From: Shigella phage Sf21
Reading direction: 5' to 3' (one strand)
DNA: 64,000 nucleotides
Sequence record: MF327007
Positions 6,905 through 50,899 of this stretch are shown piece by piece. The notes under the pieces are model-generated. The model did no database searches. It was given only the letters and a program-made list of their open reading frames with translations, and was not told the DNA's origin. The stretch's first letter is position 1. Every line of letters starts with the position of its first letter. The position numbers and the translations under genes are program-made.

Positions 6905-7040
6905 ATCAATTCCTCAAAGGTAATTCATATGTTAATAATACCACGGTTTGAACTTGTTGTAAACAACTTTGTGAAAATTATTTTAGGGAATGATAAGAAG
7001 GGAACGATAGCTTAGAATGGTAAATATACAGAATGTAAGA

Positions 7041-17442: not shown

Positions 17443-17970
17443 TTATGCGAGTACCGTCTTTAACCGTTCTTCAAATTTCCGAAGAGTGTTCTGGCGTTCA
17501 GCTCTTTGCTTTTTATAAGTTTCAATACGCTCTGAAATGAGAGTGTATCGTTCATTTACTGATTCTTTCATAAAATCAGGAATTTCACGAGAAGCTTTAA
17601 TCTCGTCAAATTTATCAATAACTGCTTGCTCTTCAGCAATTAAGTTATCATACATCAAAATATCTTTCTTGATGAACTCAATATCTTCTTGAGTTACACG
17701 AGATAATTTAGATGCTTTATCCTTTTTGTACTGTTCGTTAGTATCACGAGACCAGTGTAATGTACGATTTTTATTCGTATTCTTGTAAATTTCTACAATA
17801 CCAATCTCATCGATAATAACGATCCAATTCCAACGAGATTTGTAAATTTGTCCTCCGTCAACCGTGATTTCACCTCCGATTGAGATGTCATTAAAGAACT
17901 TGCTTTGTGCTTCAGATTTAAATTTACCATCGTTGTAATTTACCAGGTTGAAAATATCTTTAGCGTTCAT
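17443..17970 (-). CDS. Hypothetical protein (175 aa)
   Basis: ORF 29 nt downstream of an early-type promoter. Confidence 0.6.
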   Translation of the reverse strand: MNAKDIFNLVNYNDGKFKSEAQSKFFNDISIGGEITVDGGQIYKSRWNWIVIIDEIGIVEIYKNTNKNRTLHWSRDTNEQYKKDKASKLSRVTQEDIEFIKKDILMYDNLIAEEQAVIDKFDEIKASREIPDFMKESVNERYTLISERIETYKKQRAERQNTLRKFEERLKTVLA

Positions 17971-17998
17971 TTTGTGTTCCTCCGTAGTTGATAGTTGT

Positions 17999-18028
17999 AT
18001 AGTACCACAGAGGAACAGTCTTGTAAAC
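17999..18028 (-). promoter_or_regulatory. Early promoter (GTTTAC -35, 18-bp spacer, TACTAT -10)
   Basis: Minus-strand GTTTAC and TACTAT with A-rich upstream element; drives 17443-17970. Confidence 0.65.
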
Positions 18029-18030
18029 CA

Positions 18031-18345
18031 CTAAAAGAAACTTCTTTCACAATTTTTTCCACTGAACCACGCGCTCACTGCTTTCTTAGTCTCAGGAGCA
18101 GTGTTATCCATAAACCATTCAAAGGCAGCCTTTTTATGATTCTGGAGGGCTTCTCGGGCTTTAATCTGCTCACGGTCTATTAACACTAACATATGAGCCT
18201 TTCTTGTCACCATGGGCTTCTTATGATTTTTTGAATATTCCCAATCATTTGTCCATCGCATCGTTGTTGCGAATTGAAGTACAGCTTCTTTAATTTTAGT
18301 TTCGTAAATTTCACGAGCCTTTGAGTATAACATCATTACCTCCAT
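18031..18345 (-). CDS. Hypothetical protein (104 aa)
   Basis: ORF on gene strand. Confidence 0.5.
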   Translation of the reverse strand: MEVMMLYSKAREIYETKIKEAVLQFATTMRWTNDWEYSKNHKKPMVTRKAHMLVLIDREQIKAREALQNHKKAAFEWFMDNTAPETKKAVSAWFSGKNCERSFF

Positions 18346-19403: not shown

Positions 19404-19438
19404 TTTATTCTCCAAATCCGTATCAGTTGATAGTTGTA

Positions 19439-19468
19439 TAGTACCATAAAGCTTTATGCTTGTAAACC
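19439..19468 (-). promoter_or_regulatory. Early promoter (GTTTAC -35, 18-bp spacer, TACTAT -10)
   Basis: Same architecture; drives the ATPase gene 18435-19403. Confidence 0.65.
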
Positions 19469-19491
19469 GTTTTGTGAAAAAATTTTGAAAT

Positions 19492-19517
19492 AAAAAAAGG
19501 GAGCCCGAAGGCTCCCT
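19492..19517 (-). terminator. UUCG-tetraloop terminator (minus strand)
   Basis: Minus strand GGGAGCC-UUCG-GGCUCCC followed by seven U. Confidence 0.75.
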
Positions 19518-22845: not shown

Positions 22846-22997
22846 GCCATGTGAGTTGCAACTTCATCACACATATTATAACGTTTCTTAAGAAGTTCTA
22901 CAAGTTCTTCACTAGTAACTTCATCCATGTCGACGAAAAAATCACCATTAATGATGACGTAGATATTTCCTTCTTGATTGAGTGCTTCAATTTTCAT
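22809..22997 (-). CDS. Hypothetical protein (62 aa)
   Basis: Start set at MKIEALNQ, preceded by SD and an early promoter (ORF track extends to 23144). Confidence 0.5.
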
Positions 22998-23025
22998 GAT
23001 GTTCTCCTCTTTATCCGATAGTTGT

Positions 23026-23055
23026 ATAGTATCACAGCTCAAACGGAAAGTAAAC
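23026..23055 (-). promoter_or_regulatory. Early promoter (GTTTAC -35, 18-bp spacer, TACTAT -10)
   Basis: Same architecture; drives 22809-22997. Confidence 0.6.
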
Positions 23056-23064
23056 CGGTAAAAT

Positions 23065-34051: not shown

Positions 34052-34327
34052 TTATTTCATATTATTGAAATATTCTTCTGCGATTTCGTCGTTATCATGG
34101 TAAACTTTAGAAGACAGTTTAACATAACCTTCTGCCGTGAACATGTTAATCACAACCTTTACAGTATACCACTGACCGTCTTCATTACCCATTACTGCGT
34201 AAGTTTCAAACATCGGATGATCAGGACCGATAACTTTAATATCATTCACTGTACGACCGAAATCTTCTGAAACACATTTCATAAAGAAGTTGAACAGTTC
34301 GCCGTAATTATCCATTTCATTCTCCAA
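34052..34327 (-). CDS. Hypothetical protein (91 aa)
   Basis: ORF about 30 nt downstream of an early promoter. Confidence 0.55.
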   Translation of the reverse strand: MENEMDNYGELFNFFMKCVSEDFGRTVNDIKVIGPDHPMFETYAVMGNEDGQWYTVKVVINMFTAEGYVKLSSKVYHDNDEIAEEYFNNMK

Positions 34328-34358
34328 ATTGTTTTCTGTATCAGTAGTTGATAGTTGT

Positions 34359-34388
34359 ATAGTACCATGGAAGAACAGGGATGTAAAC
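34359..34388 (-). promoter_or_regulatory. Early promoter (GTTTAC -35, 18-bp spacer, TACTAT -10)
   Basis: Same architecture with A/T-rich UP element; drives 34052-34327. Confidence 0.65.
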
Positions 34389-34521
34389 AGTTTTGTGAAA
34401 AAATTTTTTAAAAAGTTTTAGGGAATTCTAGGGTCAGGAGGGACAATTAAAAGGTAGGATAATATATTATAAAGGGTATAAACTAAATGATGCCCAGAGA
34501 GGCCCGGAAAGGCCTAGATAC

Positions 34522-34549
34522 CAAAAAGCCCCAACCTTTCGGCTGGGGC
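34522..34549 (-). terminator. Rho-independent terminator (minus strand) after the internal-protein-like gene
   Basis: Minus strand GCCCCAGCC-GAAA-GGTTGGGGC followed by UUUUU; near-identical to the hairpin at 35077-35104. Confidence 0.7.
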
Positions 34550-34557
34550 TAAGAATG

Positions 34558-35067: not shown

Positions 35068-35075
35068 TATTTATA
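35068..35075 (-). promoter_or_regulatory. Late promoter (TATAAATA) for the internal-protein-like gene 34558-35031
   Basis: Exact TATAAATA on the minus strand about 37 nt upstream of the ATG. Confidence 0.55.
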
Positions 35076-35076
35076 C

Positions 35077-35104
35077 TAAAAAGCCCCAACCTTTCGGTCG
35101 GGGC
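35077..35104 (-). terminator. Rho-independent terminator (minus strand) upstream of the internal-protein-like gene
   Basis: Minus strand GCCCCGACC-GAAA-GGTTGGGGC followed by UUUUU. Confidence 0.7.
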
Positions 35105-35105
35105 T

Positions 35106-35414
35106 AAGCCTTGCGGCAACCTTGTCGGGGTTCCACCTGCTAAGGCAAGTGTTTGTACGAAACGCCGGGATTCGAACCCGGTTATTAAGCAGTTGACGCT
35201 ACTCAATATTTTTAAAAGGCCATATCTCGACCATATCCGAACGTTCCGTCAAAAACGCTACTCGGCTTACGGCAAAGATATTTCCTCGAATCGATAATTC
35301 GGTGCGCCGTTTCTGCTGTGATGTAAGAGGGCATCAATAAACGCAAAGATTATTAACGCAATTCCTTACTCAGGGAACATCAGTCCGACGACTTACCGGT
35401 AGCGACCCGGTTTC
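35106..35414 (-). ncRNA. Candidate small stable RNA region with tRNA-like T-arm
   Basis: About 300 nt without a credible ORF; minus strand CCGGG-TTCGAAT-CCCGG T-arm-like element with acceptor-like pairing (CGGAACG/CGTTTCG) but no CCA; bounded by a terminator at 35077-35104. Confidence 0.3.
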
Positions 35415-35783: not shown

Positions 35784-35859
35784 TGGTCGAGGCAGTAGGG
35801 ATCGAACCTACGACCCAGGACTTAGAAGGTCCTTGCTCTTCCTTCTGAGCTATGCCCCG
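35784..35859 (-). tRNA. tRNA-Arg (anticodon UCU)
   Basis: Cloverleaf folded by hand from the reverse complement: acceptor CGGGGCA/TGCCTCG, anticodon loop CTTCTAA, T-arm GTAGG-TTCGATC-CCTAC, encoded CCA. Confidence 0.85.
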
Positions 35860-35863
35860 TAAT

Positions 35864-35939
35864 TGGGGTGACCGATGGGAGTCGAACCCATGACTACGAG
35901 AATCACAATCTCGAGTTCTACCAACTGAACTACGGCCAC
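35864..35939 (-). tRNA. tRNA-His (anticodon GUG)
   Basis: Acceptor GTGGCCG/CGGTCAC, anticodon loop TTGTGAT, T-arm ATGGG-TTCGACT-CCCAT, encoded CCA. Confidence 0.75.
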
Positions 35940-36033
35940 ATTAATACCTACTCCAACAATCAAGATGTCTTCACACGAAATTAAGAGAAGAGTGATCAGT
36001 TCAACCCCTATAATCGCGTCAAGTAGATATTAA

Positions 36034-36049
36034 TGTGACAGTTGTCACA
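36034..36049. promoter_or_regulatory. CRP-site-like palindrome TGTGA-N6-TCACA inside the tRNA array
   Basis: TGTGACAGTTGTCACA read directly; perfect half-sites with 6-bp spacer in the 114-nt gap between tRNA-Asn and tRNA-His. Confidence 0.3.
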
Positions 36050-36053
36050 AATT

Positions 36054-36129
36054 TGGCGGACGTGATAGGATTCGAACCTATAACCAATCGCTTAACAGGC
36101 GATCGCTCTGCCATTGAGCTACACATCCA
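36054..36129 (-). tRNA. tRNA-Asn (anticodon GUU)
   Basis: Acceptor GGATGTG/CACGTCC, anticodon loop CTGTTAA, T-arm ATAGG-TTCGAAT-CCTAT, encoded CCA. Confidence 0.75.
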
Positions 36130-36132
36130 AAT

Positions 36133-36219
36133 TGGTGGGGAGTGGTGGAGTCGAACCACCCGAGTCGCAATGACAATGAATTTACAGTCCACACCGCTAC
36201 CTCTACGGGATAACTCCCC
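36133..36219 (-). tRNA. tRNA-Tyr (anticodon GUA), long variable arm
   Basis: Acceptor GGGGAGT/ACTCCCC, anticodon loop CTGTAAA, T-arm GGTGG-TTCGACT-CCACC, 87 nt, encoded CCA. Confidence 0.7.
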
Positions 36220-36232
36220 CTAATTCTTAATT

Positions 36233-36307
36233 TGGTGGCCCTGGGTGGAATTGAACCACCATCTGGCGATTATGAGTCGCTTGCTTGAACCTTCCAGCTA
36301 CAGGGCC
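36233..36307 (-). tRNA. tRNA-Ile/Met type (anticodon CAU)
   Basis: Acceptor GGCCCTG/CAGGGCC, anticodon loop CTCATAA, T-arm GGTGG-TTCAATT-CCACC, encoded CCA. Confidence 0.75.
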
Positions 36308-36308
36308 T

Positions 36309-36384
36309 TGGTGCTGATTGACGGAATCGAACCGCCGACCTTCTCATTACAAGTGAGTTGCTCTACCTACTGAGCTAAATCAGC
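36309..36384 (-). tRNA. tRNA-Thr (anticodon UGU)
   Basis: GCTGATTTAGCTCAGTAGG...CTTGTAA...GGTTCGATTCC...AATCAGCACCA. Confidence 0.88.
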
Positions 36385-36389
36385 AAAAC

Positions 36390-36479
36390 TGGCGGAGGCG
36401 ATAGGATTTGAACCTATGAGTCGCCGGAGCGACTGCCGGTTTTCAAGACCGGTGCATTAAACCACTCTGCCACGCCTCC
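36390..36479 (-). tRNA. tRNA-Ser (anticodon UGA), long variable arm
   Basis: Acceptor GGAGGCG/CGCCTCC, anticodon loop CTTGAAA, 90 nt. Confidence 0.85.
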
Positions 36480-36481
36480 AG

Positions 36482-36555
36482 TCTCCGCGGCAGGATTTGA
36501 ACCTACGACATTCTGCTCCCAAAGCAGACGCTCTACCAAACTGAGCTACACGGAG
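36482..36555 (-). tRNA. tRNA-Pro (anticodon UGG), CCA not encoded
   Basis: Acceptor CTCCGTG/CGCGGAG, anticodon loop TTTGGGA, T-arm GTAGG-TTCAAAT-CCTGC; 3' end followed by CT not CCA. Confidence 0.85.
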
Positions 36556-36565
36556 TAAATTAAAT

Positions 36566-36639
<74 letters not shown>

Positions 36640-36644
36640 AAATT

Positions 36645-36731
36645 TGGTGCGAGAAGTGGGACTCGAACCCACAAGGAAATCATTCCGCAGCATTTTAAGT
36701 GCTGTGCCTTTACCAATTTGACCATTCTCGC
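36645..36731 (-). tRNA. tRNA-Leu (anticodon UAA), long variable arm
   Basis: Acceptor GCGAGAA/TTCTCGC, anticodon loop CTTAAAA, 87 nt, encoded CCA. Confidence 0.88.
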
Positions 36732-36732
36732 G

Positions 36733-36805
36733 CTGGGAATAAAGGACTCGAACCTTTGCATCTAGCAGTCAAAGTGCTATGCCTTACCAACTTGGCTAAT
36801 TCCCA
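36733..36805 (-). tRNA. tRNA-Gln (anticodon UUG), CCA not encoded
   Basis: TGGGAATTAGCCAAGTTGGTAAGGC...CTTTGAC...AAAGGTTCGAGTCCTTTATTCCCAG. Confidence 0.85.
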
Positions 36806-38283: not shown

Positions 38284-38311
38284 TTTATTCTCCTCAGTAG
38301 TTGATAGGGTA

Positions 38312-38341
38312 ATAGTATCACTACCCCATCTAAAAGTAAAC
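38312..38341 (-). promoter_or_regulatory. Early promoter (GTTTAC -35, 18-bp spacer, TACTAT -10)
   Basis: Same architecture; drives 38098-38283. Confidence 0.6.
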
Positions 38342-38575
38342 TTATTTTTTACGAAAAATTGATTTATTTTCTGCTGCCCATTTTTCAATAACTGCAGCAG
38401 GACCAGTAACAACAATTTTATCACCGTAATCTTCTGCGGCGAGTTGACCGAAATTATCTAATGCATCACGAAGAACTCCATGAGGCATTTCACCCATTTT
38501 ATCTTTCTTGCCAGTGTAAATAAACTCAACTTTTACATCAGCAGTTTCAGCAATAAATTCTTGGTAAGTTTTCAT
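38342..38575 (-). CDS. Internal protein (capsid-targeted)
   Basis: MKTYQEFIAE capsid-targeting N-terminus; own early promoter with 18-bp spacer; position just upstream of 57B as for T4 ipI. Confidence 0.65.
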   Translation of the reverse strand: MKTYQEFIAETADVKVEFIYTGKKDKMGEMPHGVLRDALDNFGQLAAEDYGDKIVVTGPAAVIEKWAAENKSIFRKK

Positions 38576-38609
38576 TTTGATTTCCATTTGGTTTTGTTTT
38601 GATAGGGTA

Positions 38610-38639
38610 ATAGTATCACAACTAAAACCCTATGTAAAC
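38610..38639 (-). promoter_or_regulatory. Early promoter (GTTTAC -35, 18-bp spacer, TACTAT -10)
   Basis: Same architecture; drives internal protein gene 38342-38575. Confidence 0.65.
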
Positions 38640-38651
38640 AACTTTGTGAAA

Positions 38652-38909
38652 TTATTTTAAATCTTCTAATCGTTTTTTCATCTTAGAACCATTTTTAGCA
38701 ATTTCTCCTGCATCGGAGCATAATGCTAAAAGTGCTTTAACTTTCGTTTGGTCTCCTTTAAAAGATGAAGGATCTACTGCAGCAGCAAGTTCTTTAATAC
38801 GAGAGAAAAGACGCTCAGCTTCAGCTAAAGCCATTCCAAGCTTTACTTCCATACCGTGGGAAGATTCAGTGATAGTAGTTTTTGTAGTAAACTCTTTGAA
38901 AGTTTTCAT
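38652..38909 (-). CDS. Internal-protein-like protein (capsid-targeted)
   Basis: MKTFKEFTTK N-terminus resembling the capsid-targeting sequence; own early promoter. Confidence 0.6.
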   Translation of the reverse strand: MKTFKEFTTKTTITESSHGMEVKLGMALAEAERLFSRIKELAAAVDPSSFKGDQTKVKALLALCSDAGEIAKNGSKMKKRLEDLK

Positions 38910-38938
38910 TTTATTTTCCTAATTAATTTTGATGAGAT

Positions 38939-38968
38939 AATAGTATCACTACCTCATCAGCATGTAAA
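38939..38968 (-). promoter_or_regulatory. Early promoter (GTTTAC -35, 18-bp spacer, TACTAT -10)
   Basis: Same architecture; drives internal-protein-like gene 38652-38909. Confidence 0.65.
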
Positions 38969-38981
38969 CAACTTTGTGAAA

Positions 38982-39666
<685 letters not shown>

Positions 39667-41078: not shown

Positions 41079-41903
41079 TTAAATATTTGACCAGACTTTG
41101 TTTGCAGAGAAACGTTTTCCTTTTGAAACGAACTGCTGAAGTGGCATCAATACAACGTTCGCCCAGTCTTTCGGGGCGATTTCAACAAGGCTACCCATAA
41201 TATTACCAGGTATATATGCCTTAATCATTTGGTCTGCACCCCTAAATCCTTTCACTTGACTCCAATCAATTTTTAATTTCGTTTTATTAGTAATAGTAGG
41301 TGTATTTGAATATTGCTTTAAAAGCTCTTCTAGGAATTGCTGGCGAGCTTTAGGTGGAATATAGTGCAAGTTCAATCCGTACATTAAATTATGCTTACCT
41401 AAACCAAGGTAAATTATCAAAGGAAATTTATCCCAGTAAGGAAGAGTTTCCTTGTGTTTAGCATCATAAGCAAAAGCATATATTCGTCCCGGCTGCGGGC
41501 GAACAACTTTATGTCCTTTTACTTGCTTAATAGTTTCAGCAAACCACTTTCTGGTTTTATTATTAATTGCTGCGCCTTCATTACGAATTTTATCGCGCAA
41601 TGTTTGTCTGAATGAATTTATCATAAGCAGTTGTCTTTCTTGCTTATTGAGTTTATTCATTGGTTTTGATTCAAGCTTTTGAATCTTTTCAGCTGTTTTA
41701 ATTCCTGAAGCATATTTTGACATTGCCGAAGTAAACGTAGAGTATTTGATTCCTCTTTCTTCAGCAAATTGCTTTCCTGTCATTCCTTTTGCTTTGGCCT
41801 TTCTGTATTCAAGACCTATCTGAATCCATTTCTTTTCGTTTAATGATTGCTTAACCTTTGGAACTTGGGGAGTGCTTTCATTAATTATTTGAAAAATAGC
41901 CAT
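41079..41903 (-). CDS. 2: DNA end protector gp2
   Basis: 274 aa; basic N-terminus; stop overlaps gene 4 stop/start. Confidence 0.85.
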
Positions 41904-42355
41904 TATGCCCCCTTAAAGCCAAGAGCTCGTAATCCATCTTCTGTTAGAATTCTAAATTTTATTCCACGCTTTTCAGCTAAAGATTGTGCTGCTTTCCATT
42001 TGTCGGTATTAACAGAATATGTATAAATTTCATTCATAAATCTTTTCTTCGCTGCGGTTGTTAGATGTGCTGGTTTAACTGGTGGTTGTGTTTCTTTTTT
42101 AGGTTTTATTTCAATAAAAAATTCTTGTCCAGAAGAATCTTTCATCCAAATATCCATGAAGTATCTACGTTTTTTCCCTTCTGCATTACAAAAATAAGGA
42201 ATTACTGCTGTTTCACTACCCCATGCAATAATTTCTGGATTTTTATCTAACCATTCAAAAAAGAATTTTTCCCAATTTGATCTATACGTAATTTTTTTAG
42301 GGTCACCTCTATACTTTGATATATTTTTAGGAACCCATTTTCCAGAATATGCCAT
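41903..42355 (-). CDS. 4: Head completion protein gp4
   Basis: 150 aa; TATAAATA late promoter on the minus strand upstream. Confidence 0.85.
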
Positions 42356-42366
42356 TGGATTCTCCT

Positions 42367-42374
42367 TATAAATA
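42367..42374 (+). promoter_or_regulatory. Late promoter (TATAAATA) for gene 53
   Basis: Exact TATAAATA about 29 nt upstream of the gene 53 ATG. Confidence 0.7.
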
Positions 42375-42382
42375 GATAATAT

Positions 42383-42390
42383 ATTTATAA
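42383..42390 (-). promoter_or_regulatory. Late promoter (TATAAATA) for gene 4, divergent from the gene 53 promoter
   Basis: Exact TATAAATA on the minus strand about 28 nt upstream of the gene 4 start. Confidence 0.7.
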
Positions 42391-42402
42391 ACAGGAGGGC
42401 CC

Positions 42403-43279
42403 ATGCTCTTTACATTTTTTGATCCGATTGAATATGCGGCCAAAACGGTGAATAAAAACGCGCCGACTATTCCTATGACAGATATTTTTAGAAACTATAA
42501 AGACTATTTTAAACGCGCTCTTGCGGGATACCGCTTACGTACTTATTATATCAAAGGTTCACCACGCCCGGAAGAATTAGCAAATACTATATATGGAAAT
42601 CCGCAGTTGTATTGGGTTTTATTGATGTGTAATGATAATTATGATCCGTATTATGGATGGATTACTTCGCAAGAAGCTGCTTATCAAGCATCTATACAAA
42701 AATACAAAAACGTAGGTGGAGACCAAATAGTATATCATGTGAATGAGAACGGTGAAAAATTTTATAATTTAATATCATACGATGATAATCCATATGTTTG
42801 GTATGACAAAGGCGATAAAGCTAGAAAATATCTATATCAAAGGTTCACCACGCCCGGAAGAATTAGCAAATACTATATATGGAAATCCGCAGTTGTATTG
42901 GGTTTTATTGATGTGTAATGATAATTATGATCCGTATTATGGATGGATTACTTCGCAAGAAGCTGCTTATCAAGCATCTATACAAAAATACAAAAACGTA
43001 GGTGGAGACCAAATAGTATATCATGTGAATGAGAACGGTGAAAAATTTTATAATTTAATATCATACGATGATAATCCATATGTTTGGTATGACAAAGGCG
43101 ATAAAGCTAGAAAATATCCTCAATATGAAGGAGCACTTGCTGCGGTCGATACGTATGAAGCTGCTGTTCTTGAAAATGAAAAACTTCGTCAAATAAAAAT
43201 AATAGCAAAATCAGACATCAATTCATTTATGAACGACCTTATACGTATAATGGAGAAATCTTATGGAAATGATAAGTAA
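42403..43279 (+). pseudogene. 53: Baseplate wedge gene 53 disrupted by a 286-bp internal tandem duplication (frameshift)
   Basis: ATG at 42403 with AGGAGGG SD and TATAAATA late promoter; frame stops at 42918 inside the second repeat copy; 42782-43279 ORF carries the same peptide block and the C-terminus overlapping gene 5; removing one copy gives a 196-aa ORF. Confidence 0.85.
42547..43118. repeat. Perfect tandem duplication, 2 x 286 bp (42547-42832 and 42833-43118)
   Basis: Base-for-base identity by direct comparison; period 286 is not a multiple of 3. Confidence 0.95.
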
Positions 43280-44990
43280 TAACCTTAATTGGTTTGTTGG
43301 TGTTGTTGAAGATAGAATGGACCCATTAAAATTAGGTCGTGTTCGTGTTCGTGTAGTTGGTCTGCATCCACCTCAAAGAGCACAAGGCGATGTAATGGGT
43401 ATTCCAACTGAAAAATTACCATGGATGTCAGTTATTCAACCTATAACTTCTGCAGCAATGTCTGGAATTGGAGGTTCTGTTACTGGACCGGTAGAAGGAA
43501 CTAGAGTTTATGGTCATTTTTTAGACAAATGGAAAACTAATGGAATTGTCCTTGGCACGTATGGTGGAATAGTTCGCGAAAAACCGAATAGACTTGAAGG
43601 ATTTTCTGACCCAACTGGGCAATATCCTAGACGTTTAGGAAATGATACTAATGTATTAAACCAAGGCGGAGAAGTAGGATATGATTCGTCTTCTAACATT
43701 ATCCAAGATAGTAACTTAGACACTGCAATAAATCCCGATGATAGACCACTATCAGAGATTCCAACCGATGATAATCCAAATATGTCAATGGCTGACATGC
43801 TTCGCCGTGATGAAGGATTAAGACTAAAAGTTTATTGGGATACTGAAGGATATCCGACAATTGGTATTGGTCATCTTATCATGAAGCAGCCAGTTCGTGA
43901 TATGGCTCAAATTAATAAAGTTTTATCAAAACAAGTTGGTCGTGAAATTACTGGAAACCCAGGTTCTATTACGATGGAAGAGGCGACGACTTTATTTGAA
44001 CGTGATTTGGCTGATATGCAACGGGACATTAAATCACATTCTAAAGTAGGACCAGTCTGGCAAGCTGTCAACCGTTCTCGTCAAATGGCGTTAGAAAATA
44101 TGGCATTTCAAATGGGTGTTGGCGGTGTAGCTAAATTTAACACAATGTTAACTGCTATGTTAGCCGGAGATTGGGAAAAAGCATATAAAGCCGGTCGTGA
44201 TTCATTGTGGTATCAACAAACAAAAGGCCGTGCATCCCGTGTTACCATGATTATTCTTACGGGGAATTTGGAATCATATGGTGTTGAAGTGAAAACCCCA
44301 GCTAGGTCTCTATCAGCAATGGCTGCTACTGTAGCTAAATCTTCTGACCCGGCTGACCCTCCTATTCCAAATGACTCGAGAATTTTATTCAAAGAACCAG
44401 TTTCTTCATATAAAGGTGAATATCCTTATGTGCATACAATGGAAACTGAAAGCGGACATATTCAGGAATTTGATGATACTCCTGGGCAAGAACGATACAG
44501 ATTAGTTCATCCGACTGGAACTTATGAAGAAGTATCACCGTCAGGAAGAAGAACAAGAAAAACTGTCGATAATTTGTATGATATAACCAACGCTGATGGT
44601 AATTTTTTGGTAGCCGGTGATAAAAAGACTAACGTCGGTGGATCAGAAATTTATTACAACATGGATAATCGTCTTCACCAAATAGATGGAAGCAATACAA
44701 TATTTGTACGTGGCGATGAAACTAAGACAGTTGAAGGCAATGGAACTATCCTAGTTAAAGGTAATGTTACTATTGTAGTTGAAGGTAATGCTGACATTAC
44801 AGTTAAAGGAGATGCTACCACTTTAGTTGAAGGAAATCAAACTAACACAGTAAATGGAAATCTTTCTTGGAAAGTTGCTGGGACAGTTGATTGGGACGTT
44901 GGTGGTGATTGGACAGAAAAAATGGCATCTATGAGTTCTATTTCATCTGGTCAATACACAATTGATGGATCGAGGATTGACATTGGCTAA
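43263..44990 (+). CDS. 5: Baseplate hub / tail lysozyme gp5 (cell-puncturing device)
   Basis: 575 aa; internal lysozyme domain DMLRRDEGLRLKVYWDTEGYPTIGIGHLI; C-terminal VxGxxxxx beta-helix repeats. Confidence 0.95.
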   Translation: MEMISNNLNWFVGVVEDRMDPLKLGRVRVRVVGLHPPQRAQGDVMGIPTEKLPWMSVIQPITSAAMSGIGGSVTGPVEGTRVYGHFLDKWKTNGIVLGTYGGIVREKPNRLEGFSDPTGQYPRRLGNDTNVLNQGGEVGYDSSSNIIQDSNLDTAINPDDRPLSEIPTDDNPNMSMADMLRRDEGLRLKVYWDTEGYPTIGIGHLIMKQPVRDMAQINKVLSKQVGREITGNPGSITMEEATTLFERDLADMQRDIKSHSKVGPVWQAVNRSRQMALENMAFQMGVGGVAKFNTMLTAMLAGDWEKAYKAGRDSLWYQQTKGRASRVTMIILTGNLESYGVEVKTPARSLSAMAATVAKSSDPADPPIPNDSRILFKEPVSSYKGEYPYVHTMETESGHIQEFDDTPGQERYRLVHPTGTYEEVSPSGRRTRKTVDNLYDITNADGNFLVAGDKKTNVGGSEIYYNMDNRLHQIDGSNTIFVRGDETKTVEGNGTILVKGNVTIVVEGNADITVKGDATTLVEGNQTNTVNGNLSWKVAGTVDWDVGGDWTEKMASMSSISSGQYTIDGSRIDIG

Positions 44991-45821: not shown

Positions 45822-47804
45822 ATGGCAAATACCCCTGTAAATTATCAATTAACAAGAACAGCAAATGCTATTCCCGAGATATTCGTCGGGGGTACATTTG
45901 CTGAAATAAAACAAAACCTCATTGAATGGCTTAATGGCCAAAATGAATTTTTGGATTATGATTTTGAAGGCTCAAGATTAAACGTTCTGTGCGACCTTTT
46001 GGCTTATAATACGCTGTACATTCAACAGTTTGGTAATGCTGCTGTGTATGAAAGCTTTATGCGTACTGCTAACTTACGAAGTTCAGTTGTTCAAGCTGCA
46101 CAAGATAACGGATATTTACCTACTTCAAAATCCGCTGCGCAGACCGAAATTATGTTAACATGCACCGACGCATTGAATAGGAATTACATTACTATTCCTC
46201 GCGGAACTCGCTTTTTAGCATATGCAAAAGATACTTCTGTTAATCCATATAACTTCGTTTCTACCGAAGACGTTATTGCTATTCGTGATAAAAATAACCA
46301 ATATTTTCCGCGTTTAAAATTGGCCCAGGGACGTATAGTAAGAACTGAAATCATTTATGATAAATTAACACCTATTATCATTTATGATAAAAATATTGAT
46401 AGAAACCAGGTTAAATTATACGTTGATGGAGCAGAATGGATTAACTGGACAAGAAAGTCAATGGTTCATGCTGGTTCTACATCGACAATTTACTACATGC
46501 GTGAAACTATTGATGGAAATACTGAATTCTATTTTGGTGAAGGTGAAATTTCTGTTAATGCTTCTGAAGGAGCTTTGACCGCTAATTATATCGGAGGTCT
46601 TAAACCTACTCAGAACTCTACGATTGTTATTGAGTACATCAGTACTAATGGTGCTGACGCGAACGGAGCAGTCGGATTTTCATACGCAGATACATTAACA
46701 AATATAACTGTCATCAATATTAATGAAAATCCAAACGATGACCCAGATTTTGTTGGGGCAGATGGCGGCGGTGATCCAGAAGATATTGAGCGTATCCGCG
46801 AATTGGGTACTATTAAACGCGAAACCCAGCAACGCTGCGTAACTGCGACTGACTATGATACATTCGTTTCAGAGAGATTTGGTTCTATTATTCAAGCAGT
46901 TCAGACTTTCACTGATTCTACTAAACCTGGTTATGCATTTATTGCTGCTAAACCTAAATCAGGTCTGTATTTAACTACTGTACAGCGTGAAGATATTAAA
47001 AATTATCTCAAAGACTATAATTTAGCTCCTATTACGCCATCAATTATTTCTCCTAATTATCTTTTTATTAAGACTAATTTAAAAGTCACATATGCTTTAA
47101 ATAAGCTGCAAGAATCCGAACAGTGGCTCGAAGGTCAAATAATTGATAAAATTGATCGTTATTATACCGAAGACGTAGAAATTTTTAATTCATCTTTCGC
47201 TAAATCTAAGATGTTGACATATGTAGATGATGCAGATCATTCTATCATTGGCTCATCAGCGACAATTCAAATTGTTCGTGAAGTACAAAACTTCTATAAA
47301 ACGCCTGAAGCAGGTATTAAATACAATAATCAAATAAAAGATCGTTCTATGGAATCTAATACGTTTTCATTTAATTCTGGACGAAAGGTTGTAAATCCTG
47401 ATACTGGTTTAGAAGAAGATGTATTATATGACGTTCGCATAGTATCAACAGACCGAGATTCTAAAGGAATTGGTAAAGTTATTATTGGTCCATTTGCTTC
47501 TGGCGATGTTACAGAAAATGAAAACATTCAGCCATATACAGGCAACGATTTTAACAAATTAGCAAATTCTGATGGACGCGACAAATACTATGTTATCGGT
47601 GAAATAAATTATCCAGCTGATGTGATTTATTGGAATATCGCTAAAATTAATTTAACATCTGAAAAATTTGAAGTTCAGACCATCGAATTATATTCTGACC
47701 CAACCGATGATGTTATCTTTACTCGCGACGGTTCACTGATTGTATTTGAAAATGACTTACGTCCACAATACTTAACTATCGATTTGGAGCCTATATCACA
47801 ATGA
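45822..47804 (+). CDS. 6: Baseplate wedge protein gp6
   Basis: 660 aa; synteny 5-6-7-8. Confidence 0.9.
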   Translation: MANTPVNYQLTRTANAIPEIFVGGTFAEIKQNLIEWLNGQNEFLDYDFEGSRLNVLCDLLAYNTLYIQQFGNAAVYESFMRTANLRSSVVQAAQDNGYLPTSKSAAQTEIMLTCTDALNRNYITIPRGTRFLAYAKDTSVNPYNFVSTEDVIAIRDKNNQYFPRLKLAQGRIVRTEIIYDKLTPIIIYDKNIDRNQVKLYVDGAEWINWTRKSMVHAGSTSTIYYMRETIDGNTEFYFGEGEISVNASEGALTANYIGGLKPTQNSTIVIEYISTNGADANGAVGFSYADTLTNITVININENPNDDPDFVGADGGGDPEDIERIRELGTIKRETQQRCVTATDYDTFVSERFGSIIQAVQTFTDSTKPGYAFIAAKPKSGLYLTTVQREDIKNYLKDYNLAPITPSIISPNYLFIKTNLKVTYALNKLQESEQWLEGQIIDKIDRYYTEDVEIFNSSFAKSKMLTYVDDADHSIIGSSATIQIVREVQNFYKTPEAGIKYNNQIKDRSMESNTFSFNSGRKVVNPDTGLEEDVLYDVRIVSTDRDSKGIGKVIIGPFASGDVTENENIQPYTGNDFNKLANSDGRDKYYVIGEINYPADVIYWNIAKINLTSEKFEVQTIELYSDPTDDVIFTRDGSLIVFENDLRPQYLTIDLEPISQ

Positions 47805-50800
47805 CAGTAAAAGCACCTTCAGTCACTAGTCTCAGAATTTCCAAGTTATCCGCAAATCAGGTGCAAGTACGCTGGGATGACGTTGGTGCTAATTTCTACT
47901 ATTTTGTAGAAATCGCTGAGACAAAGACAGACTCGGGGGAAAATCTCCCGAGTAATCAATATAGATGGATTAACTTAGGATATACTGCAAATAACAGCTT
48001 CTTTTTTGACGATGCTGACCCATTGACATCATACATTATTAGAGTAGCTACAGCTGCACAAGATTTTGAGCAGTCTGATTGGATTTATACCGAAGAGTTT
48101 GAAACTTTTGCTACAAATGCTTATACATTTCAAAACATGATTGAAATGCAATTAGCCAATAAATTCATTCAGGAAAAATTTACTCTTAATAATTCTGATT
48201 ATGTTAATTTTAACAATGACACTATAATGGCTGCATTGATGAATGAATCATTTCAATTCAGCCCATCGTATGTTGATGTTTCATCAATAAGTAATTTTAT
48301 TATTGGTGAAAATGAGTATCATGAAATACAAGGTTCTATTCAGCAAGTATGTAAGGATATTAACCGAGTTTATTTGATGGAATCAGAAGGAATTCTATAT
48401 CTTTTTGAGCGCTATCAACCTGTAGTTAAAGTATCCAATGATAAAGGACAAACCTGGAAAGCCGTAAAGCTCTTCAATGACCGTGTAGGATATCCTTTAT
48501 CTAAGACAGTATATTACCAATCTGCGAACACAACATACGTTCTAGGATACGACAAGATTTTCTATGGCCGTAAATCGACTGACGTTAGATGGTCAGCAGA
48601 TGATGTCAGATTCAGTTCGCAGGATATAACATTTGCTAAACTTGGCGACCAGTTACATTTAGGATTTGATGTAGAAATCTTTGGTACTTATGCGACTTTA
48701 CCAGCGAATGTATATCGTATAGCTGAAGCCATTACTTGTACGGATGATTATATCTATGTTGTTGCCAGAGATAAAGTTAGATATATAAAAACGAGCAATG
48801 CACCTATAGATTCTGATCCATTATCTCCAACATATTCGGAAAGGCTATTTGAACCTGATACAATGACTATAACTGGAAATCCTAAAGCAGTATGCTATAA
48901 AATGGATTCTATTGGTGATAAAGTTTTTGCTCTTATTATCGGTGAAGTTGAAACATTAAATGCTAATCCTAGAACGTCAAAAATAATTGATTCTACTGAT
49001 AAAGGAATATATGTTTTAAATCATGACACAAAAACGTGGAAAAGAGTTTTTGGCAACACTGAAGAAGAAAGAAGACGTATTCAACCTGGGTATGCGAATA
49101 TGTCAACTGATGGTAAATTAGTTTCTCTATCTTCGAGTAATTTTAAATTTTTAAATGATAACGTTGTTAATGACCCTGAAACTGTAGCAAAATATCAGTT
49201 AATCGGTGCCGTTAAATATGAATTTCCTCGTGAATGGTTAGCTGATAAGCATTATCATATGATGGCATTTATAGCAGATGAAAAGTCTGATTGGGAAACT
49301 TTTACGCCTCAGCCAATGAAATACTATGCAGAACCATTCTTTAACTGGTCTAAAAAGTCTAATACACGGTGCTGGATAAACAACTCTAATAGAGCTGTAG
49401 TAGTTTATGCTGATTTAAAATACACTAAAGTTATAGAAAATATTCCGGAAACATCACCAGATAGATTAGTTCATGAATACTGGGATGATGGTGATTGTAC
49501 GATAGTAATGCCAAATGTTAAATTCACGGGATTTAAAAAATATGCGTCTGGGATGCTTTTTTATAAATCTTCTGGTGAAATAATTTCTTATTATGATTTT
49601 AACTATCGTGTGAGAGATACAGTAGAAATTATTTGGAAGCCGACTGGAGTATTTTTAAAAGCATTTTTACAAAACCAAGAGCATGAGACTCCTTGGTCAC
49701 CAGAAGAAGAGCATGGATTAGCTGACCCTGATTTAAGACCATTAATTGGCACAATGATGCCTGATTCTTATTTGTTGCAGGATTCGAATTTTGAGGCATT
49801 TTGCGAAGCATATATTCAGTATCTTTCTGATGGATATGGAACTCAGTATAACAATTTACGAAATTTAATTCGTAATCAGTATCCACGAGAAGAGCATGCA
49901 TGGGAATATTTGTGGTCAGAGATATATAAAAGAAACATTTATTTGAACGCGGATAAGCGAGATGCTGTTGCAAGATTTTTTGAATCACGTAGCTATGATT
50001 TTTATTCTACTAAAGGAATTGAAGCATCATACAAGTTTCTTTTTAAAGTTCTTTATAATGAAGAAGTTGAAATTGAAATTGAATCTGGGGCTGGTACTGA
50101 ATATGACATAATCGTTCAATCTGATTCTTTGACTGAAGATTTAGTAGGACAAACGATTTATACAGCCACAGGAAGATGTAATGTTACTTATATAGAAAGA
50201 AGTTATTCTAATGGTAAATTGCAATGGACCGTAACTATTCATAATCTTTTGGGAAGATTAATTGCTGGTCAAGAAGTTAAAGCAGAAAGACTCCCTAGTT
50301 TTGAAGGCGAAATTATTCGTGGAGTTAAAGGAAAGGATTTGCTTCAAAACAATATAGACTATATTAATAGAAGTAGATCATACTATGTAATGAAAATTAA
50401 ATCCAATTTACCTTCTTCCCGCTGGAAATCTGACGTTATTCGTTTTGTTCATCCAGTAGGATTTGGATTTATAGCAATTACCCTTTTAACGATGTTTATT
50501 AATGTTGGTTTAACTCTTAAACATACAGAGACTATAATTAATAAATACAAAAACTATAAATGGGATTCTGGATTGCCTACTGAATATGCTGATAGAGTAG
50601 CTAAATTAACTCCAACTGGTGAAATTGAACATGATTCAGTAACAGGAGAAGCAATTTATGAACCTGGCCCAATGGCTGGTGTAAAATATCCTCTTCCTAA
50701 TGACTATAATGCTGAAAATAATAATTCAATATTTCAAGGTCAATTGCCTTCTGAACGACGCAAGTTAATGAGTCCCCTATTTGATGCTTCTGGAACAACA

Positions 50801-50899
50801 TTTGCGCAATTTAGGGATTTAGTTAATAAACGTCTAAAAGATAATATAGGAAATCCAAGAGACCCTGAAAATCCAACACAGGTTAAAATAGATGAATGA
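47801..50899 (+). CDS. 7: Baseplate wedge protein gp7
   Basis: 1032 aa; start overlaps gene 6 stop. Confidence 0.9.
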   Translation: MTVKAPSVTSLRISKLSANQVQVRWDDVGANFYYFVEIAETKTDSGENLPSNQYRWINLGYTANNSFFFDDADPLTSYIIRVATAAQDFEQSDWIYTEEFETFATNAYTFQNMIEMQLANKFIQEKFTLNNSDYVNFNNDTIMAALMNESFQFSPSYVDVSSISNFIIGENEYHEIQGSIQQVCKDINRVYLMESEGILYLFERYQPVVKVSNDKGQTWKAVKLFNDRVGYPLSKTVYYQSANTTYVLGYDKIFYGRKSTDVRWSADDVRFSSQDITFAKLGDQLHLGFDVEIFGTYATLPANVYRIAEAITCTDDYIYVVARDKVRYIKTSNAPIDSDPLSPTYSERLFEPDTMTITGNPKAVCYKMDSIGDKVFALIIGEVETLNANPRTSKIIDSTDKGIYVLNHDTKTWKRVFGNTEEERRRIQPGYANMSTDGKLVSLSSSNFKFLNDNVVNDPETVAKYQLIGAVKYEFPREWLADKHYHMMAFIADEKSDWETFTPQPMKYYAEPFFNWSKKSNTRCWINNSNRAVVVYADLKYTKVIENIPETSPDRLVHEYWDDGDCTIVMPNVKFTGFKKYASGMLFYKSSGEIISYYDFNYRVRDTVEIIWKPTGVFLKAFLQNQEHETPWSPEEEHGLADPDLRPLIGTMMPDSYLLQDSNFEAFCEAYIQYLSDGYGTQYNNLRNLIRNQYPREEHAWEYLWSEIYKRNIYLNADKRDAVARFFESRSYDFYSTKGIEASYKFLFKVLYNEEVEIEIESGAGTEYDIIVQSDSLTEDLVGQTIYTATGRCNVTYIERSYSNGKLQWTVTIHNLLGRLIAGQEVKAERLPSFEGEIIRGVKGKDLLQNNIDYINRSRSYYVMKIKSNLPSSRWKSDVIRFVHPVGFGFIAITLLTMFINVGLTLKHTETIINKYKNYKWDSGLPTEYADRVAKLTPTGEIEHDSVTGEAIYEPGPMAGVKYPLPNDYNAENNNSIFQGQLPSERRKLMSPLFDASGTTFAQFRDLVNKRLKDNIGNPRDPENPTQVKIDE

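Follow-up and report, generated by a model that had tools for sequence, protein, structure and literature searches.

The baseplate gene 53 in the 64-kb stretch of phage DNA analysed here (the window) is split by a perfect 286-bp tandem repeat, a feature that is most likely a leftover of assembly or finishing and not a biological one. We put at roughly three in four the probability that the second copy is an untrimmed overlap, left behind at a contig join or at genome closure. Both this origin and the step responsible for it, whether in software or manual, are what we infer from the sequence.

The window is a segment of a Tequatrovirus (T4-like) genome with the canonical gene order 47, a-gt, 55, tRNA cluster, 57, 1, 3, 2, 4, 53, 5 and 6 through 17, and it is collinear with T4, gene 47 lying at 1262 as against 35428 in T4 and gene 53 at 42403 as against 77385. 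Gene 53 is found in its expected place, between a divergent gene 4 and a gene 5 whose start overlaps it. The features of the locus, numbered along the window, are these.

41903-42355, minus strand: gene 4 (head completion/closure), intact, 150 aa, divergent from gene 53
42367-42374, plus strand: late-promoter core TATAAATA upstream of gene 53 (motif position)
42382-42389, minus strand: late-promoter core TATAAATA for gene 4, divergent from and back-to-back with the gene 53 core
42403-42918, plus strand: first open reading frame (ORF1), 171 aa, gp53 residues 1-143, then a stop after 28 out-of-frame residues (LYQRFTTPGRISKYYIWKSAVVLGFIDV)
42547-42832, plus strand: repeat copy 1, 286 nt, from gene 53 codon 49 position 1 to codon 144 position 1
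42782-43279, plus strand: second open reading frame (ORF2), 165 aa, 17 out-of-frame residues (MIIHMFGMTKAIKLENI) followed by gp53 residues 49-196
42813-42852, plus strand: region of the copy 1/copy 2 junction (42832/42833), ...GAAAATATC joined to TATATCAAAGG..., microhomology 0 bp
42833-43118, plus strand: repeat copy 2, 286 nt, 100% identical to copy 1
42911-42918, plus strand: ATGTGTAA, where the ORF1 stop TAA (42916-42918) overlaps the ATG at 42911, which is Met75 in the native frame of copy 2
43263-44990, plus strand: gene 5 (baseplate hub and tail lysozyme), intact, 575 aa, its start overlapping the gene 53 stop
43285-43422, minus strand: repEB-like small ORF (oriE region), intact, 45 aa, outside the duplication, annotated in T2 and T4

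The motif TATAAATA is the consensus core of T4 late promoters, and the two divergent cores together make up a 12-nt near-palindrome (42366-42390) between genes 4 and 53.

Positions 42547-42832 and 42833-43118 are the same base for base (Python string equality, True), and Tandem Repeats Finder returns a period of 286, 2.0 copies, 100% matches and a score of 1144. Identity extends beyond the two full units by 0 bases on the left and 0 on the right, giving a junction microhomology of 0 bp, and the period leaves a remainder of 1 on division by 3. The perfect duplication, a period that is not a multiple of 3 and the lack of microhomology had all been claimed in the preliminary description, and all three hold. 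A run of 286 identical bases cannot be due to chance. The unit is repeated head to tail, as in any tandem duplication, and there are exactly two adjacent, perfectly identical copies with breakpoints that ignore sequence and gene structure, in a repeat that is unique when set against close relatives, as in an overlap artefact. The 100% identity, the exactly two copies, the 0 bp of microhomology and the positions of the breakpoints show that the process behind them is blind to both sequence and reading frame. Slippage driven by secondary structure was considered and rejected, since no hairpin or palindrome brackets the breakpoints, and a link of the repeat to oriE/repEB was likewise dropped because repEB is intact and lies outside the repeat.

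The 286-bp unit is the sole long perfect repeat within the window, and the remaining repeat families are short, diverged and promoter- or terminator-like. Dispersed plus-strand repeats of about 70 nt, with 62-88% identity and the common elements ...GATAGTTGTATAGTA...TGTAAAC..., lie at 6922-6992, 17966-18036, 19405-19493, 22993-23063, 34326-34414 and 38299-38997, and in reverse complement they resemble the early/middle promoter regions that T4 has at minus-strand genes. Two GC-rich, hairpin-containing, terminator-like repeats are found at 34518-34553 and 35073-35108. The 3' part of gene 5 has an imperfect 24/48-nt periodicity on the plus strand (44729-44861, 71-81% matches) that corresponds to the repeated octapeptide of the gp5 needle beta-helix, and the same pattern is seen in BYEP02, a deposited genome taken up below. 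The minus-strand tRNA cluster (35784-36805) holds 11 genes (Arg-UCU, His, Asn, Tyr, Met, Thr, Ser, Pro, Gly, Leu and Gln); T4 itself has 8, fewer than the window.

As written, gene 53 is distributed over two frames, and the repeat is the only cause of this arrangement. The frame opened by the ATG at 42403 (ORF1) runs out of frame into copy 2 and stops at 42918, 344 nt upstream of the gene 5 start; in the normal arrangement the end of gene 53 overlaps gene 5. The repeated block of gp53 is then read again in frame in ORF2, which supplies the C-terminus that overlaps gene 5. Removal of one copy yields a single 591-nt ORF of 196 aa, the same length as T4 gene 53 (77385-77975), and the restored protein is identical at 195 of 196 positions to gp53 as resolved in the T4 baseplate structures PDB 5hx2 (chain F) and 5iv5. 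The early stop, the second reading of the block and the return of a protein of T4 size on deletion of one copy had each been proposed beforehand, and each was borne out. Against the Pfam family PF11246 (score cutoff 21), ORF1 scores 276 bits over model positions 1-144 of 200 and ORF2 251.5 bits over positions 43-200, compared with 343.8 bits for the restored protein; no single ORF of about 180-206 aa spans the whole model in the sequence as written, and one does after a copy is removed.

It is almost certain that gp53 cannot be made from the sequence as written, because ORF1 lacks residues 144-196 and ORF2 lacks a ribosome-binding site. The Shine-Dalgarno pairing of ORF1 (-10.8 kcal/mol) is the strongest among the late genes of the window, whose fifteen genuine starts range from -3.2 to -10.8 kcal/mol, while the three ATGs of ORF2 give anti-Shine-Dalgarno pairing of +1.8, +0.3 and +0.6 kcal/mol, which amounts to no ribosome-binding site. 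Residues 144-196 contain 7 of the 27 invariant alignment columns and, in an AlphaFold model of gp53 (37 homologues, mean pLDDT 85.3), are predicted to form two short strands, a helix, a further strand and a long C-terminal helix (174-194). In the same model the repeat breakpoints fall inside a beta-strand (45-49) and at the start of another (144-147), positions on which a tidy domain duplication was rejected. Nor is there a programmed frameshift with a conserved shift site shared by relatives, as the gp53 of the relatives is read in one uninterrupted frame.

Wedge assembly is strictly ordered, such that gp53, present in 6 copies per tail, binds only after gp6, and it is needed both for binding of gp25 and for association of the six wedges into the baseplate (PMC3004832). 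This role supports the earlier statement that gene 53 is essential. As for T4 gene 53 amber mutants, no full-length gp53 is predicted from the written sequence, and its loss would be expected to halt wedge assembly after gp6, with neither gp25 binding nor association of six wedges (PMC3004832). The amber mutants are conditional and are kept on suppressor hosts, but nothing suggests a complementing system here.

Searches for the duplication elsewhere returned single-copy loci. A megablast search with 42300-43400 against 50,697 phage records matched 502 Tequatrovirus-type records, and all 40 among the matches listed align as two pieces spanning 815 nt, as against 1101 nt in the window, and thus carry one copy. 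A 40-nt query centred on the junction gave zero matches in the same 50,697 records, with 20 nt per side being shorter than the 28-nt megablast seed, so that only a contiguous junction could seed a match. Exact junction strings were absent from IMG/VR, from JGI metagenome contigs and from a set of one genome per GTDB species; 32-mers private to the window were absent from IMG/VR; and neither the complete E. coli genomes nor the PLSDB plasmids matched the gene 53 region. At the protein level, the exact products of ORF1 and ORF2 were not found among 153 billion gene positions. The 60 clusters of gp53 homologues drawn from 5.8 billion are 180-206 aa in length, with the exception of one fragment, and none has an out-of-frame tail or an in-frame internal duplication; a split, duplicated or ~290-aa homologue was not found in that search either.

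Each of eleven related loci aligns to the window in two blocks that contain no gaps and overlap in the subject by exactly 286 nt, and other indels are almost absent from these alignments, which extend up to 23 kb. The duplication is the only structural difference of the window from its relatives. Many contigs with an identical gp5 are 1-6% divergent from the window, and in eight contigs with identical gp5 gene 53 is in every case intact and 196 aa long. Phage REP2 (OQ174501.1) is alone in encoding an identical gp7; it differs from the window by ~1%, carries the 286-bp unit once and has gene 53 intact at 196 aa.

The genome is a mosaic. The 1032-aa gp7 (47801-50899) is identical in that one public genome only, gp5 (43263-44990) is identical in 183 collection blocks, and for the window as a whole no searched record matches better than ~97% over 25 kb. 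Two partial records labelled 'ASingh' match both halves of the junction at 100%, but both are single-copy and only 94-97% identical overall. In one 180-aa variant of gp53 (P0002, from a 1679-bp ENA contig, with 9 member sequences), residues 136-151 (KGDKARKYPQYEGALA) are deleted in frame, across the site that corresponds to the right breakpoint of the window repeat; the protein is either a real variant or an assembly product.

An untrimmed overlap would account for these properties in the following manner. A T4-like genome is circularly permuted, and an assembler would break it at an arbitrary place, so that one stretch could be present twice, at the two ends of a single contig or on the ends of two different ones. 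Joining these without trimming of the overlap, for instance when the genome was closed and then re-opened at a conventional start, would produce a perfect two-copy, head-to-tail repeat whose position ignores gene structure. Here the join would have fallen inside gene 53 and, 286 not being a multiple of 3, would have split the gene on paper, whereas the true genome would have one copy and an ordinary 196-aa gp53. What favours an artefact is the absence of the junction from public data, the 0 bp of microhomology, the lack of a functional gp53 and the existence of this class of artefact in BYEP02. The period of 286 matches no common assembler k-mer (55/77/99/127/141), although a k-mer-sized period defines the de Bruijn sub-type only and not overlap-layout, long-read or manual joins; the simple k-mer version of the overlap therefore does not apply, and the explanation requires a join made by hand or by an overlap-layout or long-read assembler. 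The blunt junction would be about 50% likely even under a sequence-blind process, and it argues against microhomology-mediated recombination more than for an artefact, of which it is no proof. A generally low-quality, indel-rich assembly was rejected, as alignments to the relatives contain no gaps and no other late gene of the window is disrupted, and an engineered knock-out is implausible, as a designed disruption would not take the form of a blunt internal duplication with no marker.

The alternatives divide over whether the second copy was ever present in phage DNA. Unlikely, in our judgement, is a real 286-bp duplication in a defective sub-population, a minority structure that came to be written into the consensus. 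Illegitimate, homology-independent recombination or a replication error would have created it in some genomes of the lysate, the gene-53-null genomes would depend on co-infecting wild type for their packaging and propagation, and the assembler, on meeting junction reads, would have traversed the loop. T4 does readily form tandem duplications and amplifications, and headful packaging with a terminal redundancy of ~3.3 kb tolerates an extra 286 bp (PMC9391042). It can also be reasoned that a de Bruijn assembler needs junction k-mers in the reads in order to write a junction, and the rest of the window is clean, so that the assembly is not generally poor. The genotype, however, would be lethal on its own, the junction shows 0 bp of microhomology where documented T4 events show 2-10 bp, and it occurs in no other public assembly or record searched. 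Homologous recombination in T4 is very active, and direct repeats of 286 bp should collapse to one copy at an appreciable rate. As single-copy segregants alone would be viable, any stock would be overtaken by them, and duplicated genomes should stay rare.

A duplication that is the genotype of a viable phage, with gp53 function rescued, seems to us very improbable. Rescue might come from residues 1-143 of ORF1 acting with a peptide of residues 75-196 made by termination-reinitiation at ATGTGTAA (42911-42918), where the ORF1 stop overlaps the Met75 ATG, which is in frame in copy 2; no other site of this kind is conceivable, and use of this one is speculative, the anti-Shine-Dalgarno pairing upstream of the ATG at 42911 being weak (-3.1 kcal/mol) and the two fragments lacking 10 (residues 75-196) and 7 (ORF1) of the 27 invariant positions. 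Alternatively, a low-level +1 ribosomal frameshift within 42833-42915 (the 84-nt out-of-frame stretch) would give a gp53 of ~291 aa with residues 49-143 duplicated. That stretch does contain AGG and AGA codons, but the phage-encoded tRNA-Arg(UCU) removes the usual rare-codon trigger for a +1 shift, and the failure to find a split, duplicated or similarly long homologue in the 5.8 billion clusters counts against either route. In favour of rescue, gp53 is a low-copy protein, with only 6 needed per virion (PMC3004832); against it, the breakpoints lie in or at modelled beta-strands and not in a domain linker, recombination should make the repeat unstable, and the duplication brings no evident advantage for selection to act on. 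It is also improbable that the extra copy was present in neither the phage nor the assembler output and was introduced by later handling of the data, for example by concatenation of overlapping pieces, by a slip in editing the submission or as an intentional spike-in. Such handling fits the perfect identity of the copies, the blunt join, the arbitrary placement and the uniqueness of the repeat just as an overlap left by an assembler or in finishing does. It is indistinguishable from such an overlap, and is better regarded as a sub-case of a non-biological origin with no separate mechanism. The choice first set out in the preliminary description, between a real duplication that inactivates the gene and an assembly artefact, remains the right one, and the evidence favours the artefact.

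The main value of the observation is one of data hygiene, because in a public record of this sequence gene 53 would be annotated as a pair of spurious baseplate proteins or a pseudogene and, if the repeat is an artefact, the genome would be 286 bp too long. A real duplication would instead give a minor case, in a T4-like phage, of duplication independent of homology, and if the phage were also viable, it would point to an unexpected tolerance of the conserved gp6-gp53-gp25 baseplate core and to a naturally split or recoded core baseplate protein.

Genuine tandem repeats are well documented in T4. Experimental evolution has repeatedly produced tandem amplifications of dmd-tifA, with boundary microhomologies typically of 6-10 bp, one copy of which is kept between units, and earlier work on rII, on genes 16-18 and on CRISPR escape found microhomologies of 2-10 bp (PMC9391042 and work cited therein). 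These amplifications usually take in whole genes together with a promoter, higher dosage is what selection favours in them, and their copy number reaches about ten (PMC9391042). Like the gene 16-18 amplifications of Hp17, the rII duplications and dmd-tifA, the window repeat is a head-to-tail repeat in a Tequatrovirus genome, and its size is within the range that headful packaging tolerates. It differs in that its junction is blunt, that it lies within a single essential gene, which it destroys, and that it has exactly two copies: no microhomology of 2-10 bp is retained at the junction, and in place of one or more whole selectable genes in a viable phage the unit comprises codons 49-144 and breaks the frame.

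The other comparison is with assembly overlaps. With circular or permuted templates, a contig is broken at a random place and its two ends share sequence, the repeats in the CheckV survey having sizes of 55/77/99 (PMC8116208), and the Phage Annotation Guide names contigs longer than 100% of the genome and repeats in mid-sequence among the common problems of deposited records (PMC8785237). In the deposited Tequatrovirus BYEP02 (OR757454.1), 18 tandem repeats of exactly 77 nt occur within 8.4 kb (locus L014, record 81360-89722), two of them inside gene 53 (L014:3702-4363). Nearly every gene of that locus is fragmented, with gp2 in 2 pieces, gp5 in 5 and gp6 in 2, and a 120-aa 'gp53' (P0058) ends in an out-of-frame re-reading of upstream DNA, a pattern that fits concatenation of assembly-graph segments without trimming of their k=77 overlaps. 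Untrimmed overlaps thus do reach public Tequatrovirus records and create frameshifting tandem duplications there; through the BYEP02 record, spurious truncated proteins such as P0058 enter protein databases, and overlaps of this type in deposited genomes inflate the counts of 'novel' truncated proteins. The window differs from BYEP02 in its period (286 as against 77) and in density, with one repeat in 64 kb as against one every ~450 nt. As with assembly overlaps in general, however, its repeat is perfect, two-copy, head-to-tail, arbitrarily placed and absent from relatives, and BYEP02 carries repeats of the overlap type inside the very same gene.
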